From positions 123,814,001-123,878,000 of the forward strand of contig OX597816.1 of assembly GCA_951406725.2 (NCBI GenBank): a stretch of 64,000 nt of DNA, written 5' to 3'. Shown in pieces: positions 48,768 through 57,079 of the stretch; the first letter of the stretch is position 1, and each line of letters starts with the position of its first letter. Made by a program: the position numbers and the translations under genes. The notes under the pieces are model-generated. The model was given only the letters and a program-made list of their open reading frames with translations, was not told the DNA's origin and made no database searches. This DNA is from Octopus vulgaris. Its lineage: Eukaryota.

Positions 48768-49887
48768 ATATTTGTTGTGCAAGATTTTTTATGTGAAGTC
48801 GTGTGTTGAAACAGATATTGTTATATTTCGGAATGGTCATATTGCCAGTTTAGCCAATAAAAACACACGCACTATATATTTGGTGTTATTTTGCTTCAGT
48901 GATATTTATTTTTTACATTAATCTTAATCTTATTTCGGCCAAAGTTCTTTCGTCACACTCCTGTGACCGCATCAGTGGTCCTTTGTTTTCTTCTCACTTA
49001 CTTGTGTCTCTCCTTACTAACCGTCAGCCATTTTGTATTTCTATTGTATGTCTTCATTTGCGCATGCTTATATCTCTATGTGCGTCTATGTTTATTTAGT
49101 GTGTGTGTGTGGGGGATGCCTGTAATATTTGTATCTTCTGGTTATATACATTCTTGTAATTTGTATTTTGTTTTTGTTGTTGTTGCTTTTGTTCTAATTT
49201 TATTCATGTGTTTACATCCACCCATTATTATCATTACATATGCTTGTATGTATGTATAACAACAATATTAGTAATAATAATAATAAATCTAATCGAGAAA
49301 AAAAAAAAAAAAAAGAATATACATATACATATATATATATATATACATACATATACATATACATATATATATATATATATACATATATACACACATATAT
49401 ACACATATACATATATATACACATATACATATATATAGATATTCATTTCTATTTCTTTAATTACCTGTGTATTTATTATGTTTGCAGGATCCACTATTGT
49501 CATATGTTGTGGTGTGCGCTATTGCTCCATTCTAGTTTTCTATTCAGGCTAGGTTTATTTTCTATTATATGTGTAGCTTCTGTAATTTGTCTAATTGTTG
49601 CATCTGTTCTATGTGTGGACAATATCTTAATCTCTATGTTATTGATTGATCCCCCGTGTTCTTGTTCGGCGTGTTGGTACAGAATCGATGAGCTTTTACC
49701 TTCCTTGAGTTGTCTCCAATGTTCATTCACCCGCTCACCAATGCTTCTTGCAGTTTCCCCTACGTATGTTACTGTCTTGTTACTGCATCGTCCCTCTATA
49801 CATCTTATACTATAGACCACATTTCTGGCTTTACAGTTCGTTTGTGGGCTAAATCTACATACAGTGCAATAGTTATCCGTACAGAGA
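48768..49887 (-). repeat. 3' pseudo-LTR (EN-coding end, 3'UTR and extension into ORF start)
   Basis: Near-identical to 53356-54475; includes the first ~24 codons [23 protein letters not shown] before (TA)n. Confidence 0.9.
48937..48981 (-). ncRNA. Non-canonical hammerhead-like motif in pLTR
   Basis: GGACCA-CUGAUG-CG-GUCACA-GGAG-UGUGAC-GAAA-GAAC-UU-UGGCC: 6-bp stem II, CCA/UGG plus GG/CC stem I, minimal stem III, but A9 replaced by CG. Confidence 0.5.
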
Positions 49888-52800
49888 GTTCTACTAAAAG
49901 GATAGATTCTACCAATTATAGATCTGATAGGGTTGCCTGGCTTTTCAACAACCTTAATTCTTAGTTTAAGTTTATCTAGGGTCCTTCTAAAGCGGTACGC
50001 TAGTTCACCTCCAGGGGTGGTGTCAACGAACATGACACTCTGGTATTTATGGCTATCATACCAAGAGTTGGCCTTCCTTATTTTCTTTTTGTCCTTTCTA
50101 TAGTGTTCCATGACTTGTTCCTGTAGAGTGGGCAAATCCCATTCCTATCATTACATAATATATTATCAAATTTCTTCATGGCTCCTTTGTATACTCTGAT
50201 CCTTTCTTTATGGCTGTAACCTGAGAACTGCATGCGGTGAATGAAATACTGTATGTGTCTCTTTAATTCTGTAGGCTCGCACATGCGTGACACATTTCTC
50301 ATTATTCTGACGAGGTCTGCCATCAAAATATTGAATTTGGCATTGCCCGCAATGGCTGAGTTCCGGTGGATCAGGTATTTTGAGGCCATAGGTTTTGCAT
50401 AGTATGAATGAAGGATTTGGGTTTTATTTTTCACAATTTCTAGCCAGAGTTCAGTGTCTAGTACTGGTAGTCTATGGTTGGGGTGTTTAGTGGGGTAGTC
50501 TATTGTGACCTTAATACTCTGGTGGATGGAGTTAGCTATTTGCTGGATGCTCTCCATAGTATTAGTTTCTATTACTATATCAACAGTACTTTCTTGTGGG
50601 GGTGCCTTTACTACTATATTGATATCATCAACATAGCGAGAGTACATGTTTACGAGTATGGATTTCTGCAGTAGGCATTCTTTAAGCCTTCTGTCCCACC
50701 ATACCATGAAGAGGTTGGCCACATCACCAGCGATACTAACACCGATGGCTGCCCCCTCGTCCTGGGCATATATTTTATTATTAAATTTAAATGTGTGGCC
50801 TTTTAGGGTAACTCTTATACTAGCTCCTAGTGCATGTGCGATCATTTTCTTTACCTGATGGACATTTGCGGGGCTCCGTATGGCTCTGGTCCATCCGCGC
50901 CATCTTTCTATATGTGTCTTCCTAGCCATAGAAGTAATTGTAGGCGGTCTACCTCTTAAACATCTACTGGGGCAGAAACTACTAAGATTATGTTTATCTA
51001 AGTATTCACTATTATATGTCAGTCTAAGTAGGAGGCCCAGTTCTTCTGTGTCGACATTACAGAACTCCACCTGGCTCTCGTTGATCATCTCCACGCACTT
51101 CTCCACTGCAAAATCTACGTCAATCGATGGGTATAGGGATACCACATCCATGCTACCTACTATACATCCTGTCAAGTCACAAGTTTTGTTACAGTCACTG
51201 ATCCTGCTTAGGAGATCTTCTGTGCTGTCACATACATCAGGTGACATCCTGATTATAGGGCGTATGATCATTGAGAGGAAGTAGGAGATTCTGTAATTGC
51301 TAGCGATATTCGCTCCACAGACTGGTCTTGTTGGTGGTCCTGCTATAGGGTCAGTAAAACCTTTATGGTCCTTGCGAAGTCCATACAGTGCCGGGATATC
51401 ATTGTTCCAGGCTTGGAAATTCTTTGCAGTACGTTTCTGAGGTCCCAGAACAATTGTCCACATCATCATGTGGGCATTGAGGACCTTTTCTCTCTCCTCA
51501 TGCGCCTGTACAGTTGTTACTTTTGTATTGGCGATATGAGGTTGCATTGCCTGGATGTAGTTCGGTAAGCTGTCTATTGACATCCTGCCGGACTTATCCG
51601 TGGGAAGGCATATCACCTCTCCGTTCCTCGTGCGCTGAATGAGCTTCTGTAGGCCACATGCAGGTTTAATCCCTAGTTGTTGGGCATCTGTCTTATTCTG
51701 TCTCTGTCTCTTAATGTATAAACCTAAAATCTGTCTAAGTTTGGTCCTAGCTATAGTGAACTGTGCTTCCATGTGGTCATTAGTACGTCTTGGGATGTAT
51801 ACCCTTTTGTTGAAGGGTAATGTTGTTGGATAAATTCGGTTCATGCAGTAAGTTTTGTCGCATACGTTGAAGAATTGAGTGTCAAAGGGATGGGTATACA
51901 TGTCAATGGTCTCTCTAGGGTTATCTTCATTATCGTTACTGTTTCCAACATCAGCCTTCCTATTATTATTATCACCATTACCACTACTACTACTACTACT
52001 AGTATTCCTATTACCACCACAACTATCACTACTATCCTCATTACTACTTCTACTGTTACCATCACCACTACTACTACCACTATTATTGTTATTACCTTTA
52101 TTCCTACCATTGCCATTATTACTATCATCGCTAGTGATATATTCATTGTTCCTGTTTCTGGTATATGTGTTGTTTATATTAGTGTTGGGTTTTATGTCTG
52201 TCTGTTGGTCCCTGTCAATCCCCCTGTTGCGGTCGTTATTTTTGTTCCTATGAGTATTGTTATCTGTTTCAAGTCCGCTGACTCCCTGTCCAAGGATCCT
52301 GTTGCATTCAACTTTATTCTCCATCGTGACCCCTATGACACAACTTTTATTCGTGTTTTTGTGACTATGGCTATCTGTGTGTGTGTTTGTGTGTCGGTTC
52401 TCCCTATAATTGTTGTTGTTGTTGCTGTTGTATACGATTTTTCTCTCTCTGTTTGTGTTTTTGTTTTTGTATCTATTGTTTGTGTCTATGCATACATTTT
52501 TTCTATTGTTATTGTTGTTGTCGCTGTTAGGGTTCGTGTTGTTGTTGTTGTTGTTGCCGCTGTTAGGGTTCGTGTTGCTTTTGTTGCTACGGTTGTTATT
52601 GTTGCGGTCATTATTGTTTGTGTTGTTGTTGCTGCGGTTAGTGTTTTTCGCGTTGTTGTTGTTGTCGCAAGTGTTGTTGTCATAGTATCTATTTAAATTC
52701 CAACGTATTTTTGTGAACGACTTTTCAATCTCGGACAGGCATTTGATGGTATTCACTTTACTATACACTGCATACTTTGGTGGTAGTTGAAGTATCGATA

Positions 52801-53428
52801 TTTCATCTGGGTCCGTTGTTACTCCCCCATAGATGTTCGCTTCATTGTCTTTATTGAACTCTTCTGGTAGTAGCACATCTTCCATAATAATTCCATTTAT
52901 TGTATCTGGATACTTCTGCTTTTCTTCCTTTGCGAGCTCATATTGACGTTTCTGTTTCAACCACGATAACTTCCTCTTAAAATGGATATTGCATTGGTGT
53001 ATTACATGTCTGTTTTCTTCATATATTATATCCATTATTAAGGTTTTCTCCTTTCGTGTCGTGATACTTTTAATTTCTTTTAAAAATATACGTTTACGCT
53101 TCTCTTGTTCGCTCAGCTCTCTGTATATTCTATTTCTAATATTTACCATTAGCGTCCTTTTTAGTCTTTCCGCTTGTCCGTTAGTGAGGTCAAGCCGTTT
53201 AACGTTGGCTGTGACCTTGTTGATACATATCCTGGACGAGACACATTGTTTTATAAAACGAAGCTGTTGCGTTGTCACAGTTTTCTTTAGGCAACAAAAT
53301 ATAGTGTTCTTCAGCATCTTGCAAGCCTGGCTGTGGCTCACGTTAGTACGTTTAAATATTTGTTGTGCAAGATTTTTTATGTGAAGTCGTGTGTTGAAAC
53401 AGATATTGTTATATTTCGGAATGGTCAT
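49500..53428 (-). CDS. PLE polyprotein: N-terminal domain, Asn-rich linker, reverse transcriptase, Cys-rich linker and GIY-YIG endonuclease (single 1-nt frameshift near 50086-50090; ~1309 aa if repaired)
   Basis: [53 protein letters not shown]-x4-C-x2-C-x7-C linker; VVY..C..C..YVGETAR...R.NEH...QH...H, RQITEA, LNRKLEW. The plus-strand copy reads through the frameshift. Confidence 0.92.
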
Positions 53429-56375: not shown

Positions 56376-56898
56376 CAATAGTGGATCCTGCAAACATAAT
56401 AAATACACAGGTAATTAAAGAAATAGAAATGAATATCTATATATATGTATATGTGTATATATATGTATATGTATATGTGTATATATGTGTGTATATATGT
56501 ATATATATATATATATATATATGTATATGTATATGTATGTATATATATATATATGTATATTCTTTTTTTTTTTTTTTTTTTTTTCTCGATTAGATTTATT
56601 ATTATTATTACTAATATTGTTGTTATACATACATACAAGCATATGTAATGATAATAATGGGTGGATGTAAACACATGAATAAAATTAGAACAAAAGCAAC
56701 AACAACAAAAACAAAATACAAATTACAAGAATGTATATAACCAGAAGATACAAATATTACAGGCATCCCCCCCCCACACACTAAATAAACATAGACGCAC
56801 ATAGAGATATAAGCATGCGCAAATGAAGACATACAATAGAAATACAAAATGGCTGACGGTTAGTAAGGAGAGACACAAGTAAGTGAGAAGAAAACAAA

Positions 56899-56943
56899 GG
56901 ACCACTGATGCGGTCACAGGAGTGTGACGAAAGAACTTTGGCC
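56899..56943 (+). ncRNA. Hammerhead-like motif in inverted copy's pLTR
   Basis: GGACCACTGATGCGGTCACAGGAGTGTGACGAAAGAACTTTGGCC. Confidence 0.5.
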
Positions 56944-57079
56944 GAAATAAGATTAAGATTAATGTAAAAAATAAATATCACTGAAGCAAAATAACACCAA
57001 ATATATAGTGCGTGTGTTTTTATTGGCTAAACTGGCAATATGACCATTCCGAAATATAACAATATATATATATACTTGC

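Follow-up and report, generated by a model that had tools for sequence, protein, structure and literature searches.

The locus described here raises the question of which Penelope-like element (PLE) has inserted into a (TA)n microsatellite of Octopus vulgaris, and by what route. It lies at 48768-57065 of a 64,000-nt stretch of contig OX597816.1 (assembly GCA_951406725.2, positions 123,814,001 to 123,878,000), hereafter the window. All positions are window coordinates, and the element is read on the minus strand. An earlier note on this DNA had described a very young, essentially complete, Naiad-like element as a candidate for activity. We conclude, with a probability of about 0.8, that the locus is a single, very recent insertion of an endonuclease (EN)-positive PLE with a C-terminal GIY-YIG domain, from a large lineage characterized by a conserved insert of ~70 amino acids (aa) in its reverse transcriptase (RT), lying between motifs A and B', by the sequence G-[GA]-[APS]-I-G in motif B' and by a short Zn linker of the Nematis type. 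Judged from its sequence, the element is probably a young member of an unnamed lineage near Nematis.

Architecture and age of the insertion

Self-comparison of the window yielded an element period of 4588 bp and a pseudo-long terminal repeat (pLTR) of 1123 bp, in agreement with the 4588-bp unit and 1.12-kb pLTR reported earlier. The arrangement can be read directly from the DNA. The upstream pLTR (53353..54475, minus strand) is a 5'-truncated tandem copy that begins in the EN linker and, read from 54475 to 53353, enters the open reading frame (ORF), the ATG of which is at 53428. The downstream pLTR (48768..49887, minus strand) terminates at 48768, at ORF position +73; its final 47 nt (48768-48814) constitute a tail that is missing at the right end. 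The two direct pLTRs (53353-54475 and 48765-49887) were 99.6% identical. An inverted, 5'-truncated copy (54474..57065, plus strand) contains an open RT-EN frame of 633 aa with no start (54474-56375), followed by a pLTR and a 3' end at +26, and was 99.2% identical to 48815-51400. It meets the first pLTR 5' to 5' at a 2-nt microhomology (54474..54475). The insertion site is a composite (TA)n/(CA)n host microsatellite on the left (48677..48771) and a (TA)n microsatellite on the right (57062..57112); the earlier note had spoken of (TA)n. No further fragments of the element were detected elsewhere in the 64-kb window.

Partial tandem pLTRs, an inverted 5'-truncated copy and a tail at a single end are hallmarks of PLEs. 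The tandem and inverted layout is a textbook arrangement (PMC8557442), and tails, inverted copies and internal initiation have been described for PLEs (PMC8557442, PMC11167929).

The insertion is very young, as had been claimed. Over 1123 bp, the left and middle pLTRs were free of substitutions and differed only in the TA tract, by two dinucleotide indels. Besides simple-repeat indels, one substitution was present in the inverted copy, in ~2416 bp outside simple repeats. This substitution, at 56172 (corresponding to 49703 and 54291), changes Glu to Lys in the EN of the inverted copy; both direct copies share the other base. Taking 0.0036 per million years, a rate given in PMC13282606, we arrived by hand at an insertion age of ~0.06 million years and an upper limit close to 0.3 million years.

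The description of the element as essentially complete stood for the DNA and failed for the protein. The full-length ORF is split into two frames (50078-53437 and 49500-50144) because the A-run at 50090, which precedes the EN, has one base fewer than its counterpart in the inverted copy. As assembled, the main ORF (50078..53428, minus strand, from the first ATG) encodes a protein of 1116 aa, ending at a premature stop, that comprises an N-terminal helical region, a PPKY motif, an Asn-rich insert, a DKS motif, the RT core and the thumb, and lacks the EN. The 3' part, encoding the Zn linker and GIY-YIG domain (49500..50096, minus strand), is out of frame with the RT. The frameshift at the A-run (50087..50096, minus strand) is either a mutation or an assembly error, and a predicted O. 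vulgaris protein, P0001, is in frame across the same site. Homopolymer slips are typical long-read errors. The direct copy may therefore be intact and the frameshift a sequencing error. An assembly error or a post-insertion change is more likely than programmed frameshifting, which we rejected on inspection: no X XXY YYZ site occurs in frame, and the inverted copy, like 131 of 229 aligned proteins, encodes RT and EN without a change of frame. Selenocysteine was likewise not indicated, in-frame TGA being absent from the open frames.

The best protein match of the element was P0001 (99.6% identity over 680 aa), which represents another copy since several sites differ. P0243, P0258 and P0259 showed 0, 3 and 1 differences, respectively, over 247 aa; one further gene-model fragment matched at 90% and two at 63-65%. 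Given these near-identical copies, the family appears by sequence to have been amplified recently, and the matches by themselves point to O. vulgaris or a close relative as the most likely host. Activity of this copy is unproven, its sole full-length ORF being frameshifted as assembled, although the family includes further near-identical copies. As a side observation, P0001, P0243, P0258 and P0259 are element copies annotated as host genes. The last three end at a shared position, ~247 aa in, where the DNA has GT, and the start of P0001 lies in the pLTR microsatellite. We considered the odd N-terminus of P0001 as a second (TA)n junction and rejected this, as it is accounted for by splicing, in the gene model, from the microsatellite within the pLTR itself.

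Reverse transcriptase, endonuclease and pLTR of the element and features of its lineage

A TERT-related RT and a GIY-YIG EN stand in one open frame of the inverted copy, the combination that marks an EN-positive PLE. The RT signature, the C-x4-C-x2-C-x7-C linker and the C-terminal GIY-YIG with CCHH residues reported earlier were all present. The frameshift, the RT insert, the Asn-rich insert and a hammerhead-like motif had been overlooked. Pfam RVT_1 and GIY-YIG both matched the octopus ORFs, both below the curated cut-off.

To place the RT, we compared it with a broad set of relatives. Among 6808 candidates, 309 proteins matched at E<=1e-10, and 291 cluster representatives (50% identity) matched at E<=1e-30; the analysis covered 120 of the former and the best 150 of the latter. 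Named hosts were O. vulgaris and Holothuria leucospilota, other taxa being leads only. Of the 229 aligned proteins of at least 350 aa, 175 had both anchor residues, the Asp of motif A and the Gln of motif B', between which the distance was measured. The RT Asp was kept in 175/175, the motif A Asp having been a selection criterion.

The distance from motif A to motif B' was 128 residues in the octopus element, 117-141 aa in 174 of the 175 relatives and 88 in the remaining one. According to hand counts on Fig. S1 of PMC8557442, it is 57-60 in six rows of Penelope, Poseidon, Nematis and Neptune, which have a C-terminal EN, 81-84 in two Naiads bearing an insertion in fingers domain (IFD), 102 and 119 in two Chlamys elements, and 107-149 in four TERTs. 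The difference corresponds to a conserved insert of ~70 aa at the IFD position, located by alignment at 50867..51076 (minus strand) in the main copy and, by alignment and model, at 54798..55007 (plus strand) in the inverted copy, where it corresponds to aa 109-178 of the 633-aa frame. Its residues E120, R146, G150, P153 and W170 were each conserved in 88-90% of the 175 relatives. The insert, which is present across the lineage, is basic, with 11 K/R versus 7 D/E. Other motifs also set the lineage apart: motif B' was GGAIG or GGPIG in 144 of the 175 and G[PA]MG in none. Among 70 full-length relatives, RT1 contained KDHK in 67, as in Hydra rows, and the DKx motif was DKS in 51, DKT in 6, DKG in 5, DKA in 4 and absent from 4. 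The octopus element has DKS.

An AlphaFold2 model of the 633-aa frame had a mean pLDDT of 91.6. Its best fold matches were telomerase RTs (human TERT: Z 17.0, root-mean-square deviation (RMSD) 4.0, 322 residues aligned), as would be expected of a PLE. When the palm and insert were modelled on their own (pLDDT 90.8), all fold matches had Z <7, the best being 6.8. Human TERT aligned over 99-104 of the 192 residues and yeast TERTs over 126-139, the latter only at an RMSD of 6-13. The predicted insert thus sits at the position of the telomerase IFD, and homology to the IFD was unsupported by the fold search. The lack of a clear match for a modelled insert does not establish a new fold. A sequence search of the PDB gave no significant match.

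The linker and GIY-YIG domain, with catalytic R, H, E and N, were located by Pfam and alignment at 55992..56333 (plus strand). The CCHH residues are C534, C539, H577 and H582. All catalytic and Zn residues are intact and were conserved in 180-197 of 197 aligned EN regions. The spacing from CxxC to the next Cys was 7 residues in the octopus element and in 128 of 199 relatives (range 5-17); hand counts on published rows gave 7 in three Nematis, ~25 in Neptune and 17-28 in Naiad (PMC8557442). Across the 229 aligned proteins, the YIG motif followed the RT in 131 and preceded it in one, the others being mostly partial. No CxC motif occurs upstream of motif A in the main ORF, and 2 of the 70 full-length relatives have one.

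The main ORF also contains, in frame, a low-complexity insert of 266 aa, 88 of which are Asn (33%; residues 246-511; 51905..52702, minus strand). The motifs flanking it are separated by 321 residues here versus 61-151 in the 14 full-length relatives measured. Long in-frame Asn-rich inserts, with 25-30% Asn, occur in Penelope families of Adineta vaga and were described as unseen in other retrotransposons (PMC3846280). The octopus insert would be comparable, though in a different host and position: it precedes the RT, whereas the A. vaga inserts stand between the RT and the thumb or EN; it is shorter (266 vs 460-554 aa), and the clade differs.

Each pLTR carries a motif resembling a minimal type I hammerhead. 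The layout comprises a bulged 5-bp stem I, CUGAUG, two nucleotides, a 6-bp stem II, GAAA, a 4-nt loop and UU; position 9 is C, and an extra nucleotide precedes stem II. A relaxed scan placed these variants at 53525..53569 (minus strand, with a predicted cut 102 nt upstream of the ATG), 48937..48981 (minus strand, core starting at 48975) and 56899..56943 (plus strand, core starting at 56905). All three pLTRs contained the motif, the rest of the window had none, and of 3000 shuffles 1 produced it. The strict CUGANGA core had one sense-strand match, at 53314, which we rejected as it lies outside the pLTR and has no stem II pairing.

Placement among Penelope-like elements

The eight PLE clades are still listed in a July 2026 preprint (10.64898/2026.07.22.740005), and the octopus element shares features with several. 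With Nematis it shares the C-terminal GIY-YIG with CCHH, the short CX2-5CxxC linker (here with spacing 4-2-7) and the pLTR architecture (PMC8557442); it differs in its distance from A to B' (128 vs 60 aa), its motif B' (G-[GA]-[APS]-I-G vs GLAMG), KDHK rather than KTHK, and DKS rather than DK[RG]G. Neptune also has a C-terminal EN, a CX2-5CxxC linker and CCHH, and a microsatellite bias has been proposed for the linker, whereas its linker spacing is ~25 rather than 7, its distance from A to B' is 57 and its motif B' is another one. Hydra elements, including Hydra-1_Obim, resemble the octopus element in their C-terminal EN, (TA)n targets and KDHK in RT1, and their minimal hammerhead near the 3' end recalls its variant hammerhead-like motif. 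They lack CCHH and have CxCX5C in place of CX4CxxC; the octopus element is also longer and has the RT insert. Penelope and Poseidon have no Zn linker between RT and EN, unlike the octopus element. With the telomerase IFD, the insert shares its position and a similar distance from A to B' (107-149 aa in the four TERT rows), TERT being also the best fold match of the whole RT; the insert itself did not superimpose well on any TERT IFD, and an independent origin is possible.

The assignment to Naiad was not borne out. By definition, Naiads carry their GIY-YIG at the N-terminus, have a CxC motif and DKA, possess an IFD of ~20 aa and lack a canonical hammerhead (PMC8557442). The octopus element is very probably not one of them because the N-terminal GIY-YIG, CxC and DKA are absent; the C-terminal GIY-YIG recorded in the earlier note itself contradicts that assignment. 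The insert at the IFD position, the (TA)n site, the partial tandem, the inverted copy and the tail are indeed shared with Naiads, including Naiad_Ovul (PMC8557442), and no strictly canonical hammerhead was found. In P0211, moreover, a relative of 1517 aa, a Zn linker and GIY-YIG are N-terminal and precede an RT of this lineage, which could point to a Naiad-derived element with a relocated EN. P0211 may, however, stem from a gene model that joined two tandem copies, the alternative being a genuine permutation of domains, and it nested among relatives with a C-terminal EN in a tree of 57 of 163 eligible relatives (FastTree, midpoint root), in which P0001 adjoined the window element. Further differences from Naiads are the position of the EN, which is C-terminal here and in all but one of the relatives in which the order of the domains was seen, the lack of GIPMG, the short linker, the insert of ~70 rather than ~20 aa, the distance from A to B' (128 vs 81-84 in IFD-bearing Naiads) and the presence of a hammerhead-like motif; the published Naiad_Ovul itself begins with its EN (PMC8557442). 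Together, these data make a Naiad, or a derivative of one, very improbable. We regard an assembly artefact of a multicopy repeat as equally remote. The copies share >99% identity, most of their differences falling in homopolymers and microsatellites, and PLE structures are known to trouble assemblies (PMC8557442); against this stand the textbook layout with two distinct end points and a microhomology junction, and the substitution that sets the inverted copy apart from both direct copies.

The placement of the lineage near Nematis can be understood in two ways, between which the proposed mechanism would be the same and the classification would differ. A divergent branch within or sister to Nematis, having gained a large RT insert, has nearly even odds. 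The CxxC-to-Cys spacing of 7 in the octopus element and most relatives is that of the three Nematis rows and not that of Neptune or Naiad, and, by eye, the pre-linker segment and the H-x4-H-G-G region resemble Nematis rows. The RT argues otherwise: published Nematis rows have 60 aa between A and B' and GLAMG, a motif found in none of the 175 relatives, and RT1 has the KDHK of Hydra rows rather than KTHK. ENs may, besides, have been exchanged between clades. A separate deep clade beyond the eight named, with a Nematis-like EN, is a serious possibility that falls short of even odds. It would account for the distinct motif B', DKS, KDHK and the lineage-wide insert, and the 291 representatives speak for its breadth. 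No lineage with a C-terminal EN and such an insert was described in the literature covered, which did not extend to Repbase, Arkhipova 2006 or Fig. 8 of PMC8557442; the family may already stand there under a generic Penelope name. The five lineage motifs had no matches in the supplement of PMC8557442, a weak result covering the first 400 characters of FASTA lines. RT3-RT4 inserts also occur sporadically in Coprina and two Adineta families. When the EN was used as a query to reach proteins of Neptune, Nematis or Naiad, P0001 was the sole match (1 of 29 candidates), two genome-contig scans for the relatives' DNA gave 29 and 113 pattern matches, of which 0 were confirmed, and the N-terminal 242 aa had no usable match in a protein atlas. 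The fullest form of the proposal, a ninth, unnamed PLE clade of aquatic eukaryotes that combines a C-terminal GIY-YIG, a conserved fingers insertion of telomerase length, a variant hammerhead and priming by nicked (TA)n on AUAU, is tentative, with the odds against it.

Several points weigh against our reading of the locus as a recent insertion from an insert-bearing lineage. The tree contained relatives and no reference clades, so that the status of the lineage rests on motifs, and the reference distances from A to B' are hand counts on six published rows. In the fold search with the palm and insert model, the insert gave no good superposition on any TERT IFD. The hammerhead descriptor was composed after the motif had been seen; the core lacks A9, the fold z was only -1.5, and an Rfam search of the window gave no hammerhead, only microsatellite-driven miRNA matches below threshold. 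Finally, the sole full-length ORF is broken as assembled.

Target site, proposed mechanism and remainder of the window

The two outward 3' ends lie at different depths in the ORF, at +73 (24 codons) and +26 (~9 codons) from the ATG at 53428, as had been noted earlier, and a 47-nt tail is present at one of them. Both finish on ATAT inside a TA-rich microsatellite. The chance of both ends falling on ATAT or TATA was 0.0013, assuming uniform ends over the first 200 nt. (TA)n-type tracts make up 2-3% of the flanking window, and the evidence for the target comes from one insertion event, in which a target-site duplication is unreadable within the microsatellite. Insertion into (TA)n was upheld, whereas microsatellite targeting is suggested by this single event and is not diagnostic of a clade: Naiad and Hydra are both listed with a (TA)n preference, and one has been proposed for Neptune as well (PMC8557442).

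In Anolis carolinensis, the protein of the Poseidon element PAc cleaves AT-rich DNA on both strands and initiates reverse transcription from two positions within the 5' end of the ORF, which gives rise to the tail; a hammerhead lies near the ORF start (PMC11167929). By analogy, the two ends of the octopus element fit this scheme. Transcription of a tandem donor would run across the pLTR and on into the start of the following ORF, and the RT-EN protein would nick both strands of the (TA)n tract. Each 3'-OH would then prime reverse transcription inside the RNA, at +73 and +26, leaving the 47-nt tail, and the two cDNAs, of 5.7 and 2.6 kb, would be joined 5' to 5' through the 2-nt microhomology. 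PAc initiates at sites without target homology (PMC11167929), whereas the octopus ends share 4 nt with (TA)n. From this one event, we infer that a nicked (TA)n end may pair with AUAU in the RNA to prime synthesis. The basic insert could help to keep primer and template in place, a task that falls to the IFD in telomerase; such a role is speculative because the insert does not superimpose on the TERT IFD.

A young Penelope insertion is ordinary in Octopus, as 336 recently active Penelope-like insertions in 31 families have been reported for O. vulgaris (PMC13282606). The interest lies in the protein: a broad lineage with a C-terminal EN and a longer, well-conserved insert at the IFD position. 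Should the lineage prove to be a clade of its own, it would have to be added to PLE classification and to profile-based annotation, the Pfam scores being below cut-off. A ninth clade of the kind outlined would break the stated rule that the IFD is confined to PLEs with an N-terminal EN, and would offer a recently active model of telomerase-like primer-template handling in a transposon. A recently mobile family allows a direct test of the function of the insert and of primer-template pairing as the basis of microsatellite targeting, an in vitro assay having been published for the Anolis Poseidon element.

The pLTR further contains a candidate retained intron of 176 nt (53877..54052, minus strand), which includes the internal TA microsatellite. 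It is suggested by splice-like ends alone, a single donor-like and a single acceptor-like site. Introns in the 5' untranslated region are known to be retained in PLEs.

Elsewhere in the window, 2193-4710 holds 4.4 copies of a 492-bp unit with 99% identity, including a 128-bp inverted piece at 4583-4710, a young tandem-plus-inversion structure that contained no hammerhead-like motif and had no Rfam match. ORF fragments at 24036-25197 and 18370-18681 (both plus strand) had no Pfam match; from their appearance, we take them to resemble restriction-like endonuclease ends of non-LTR retrotransposons. Dispersed repeats of 130-400 bp and 68-87% identity (5157-6446, 12989-13942, 16751-17131, 20020-20158, 46928-47212 and 63877-64000), for which no tRNA genes were called, are probably families of short interspersed elements. 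Decayed fragments of a pogo/Tigger-like transposase lie at 25863-26702 (plus strand), with a weak DDE_1 match (E 0.033).

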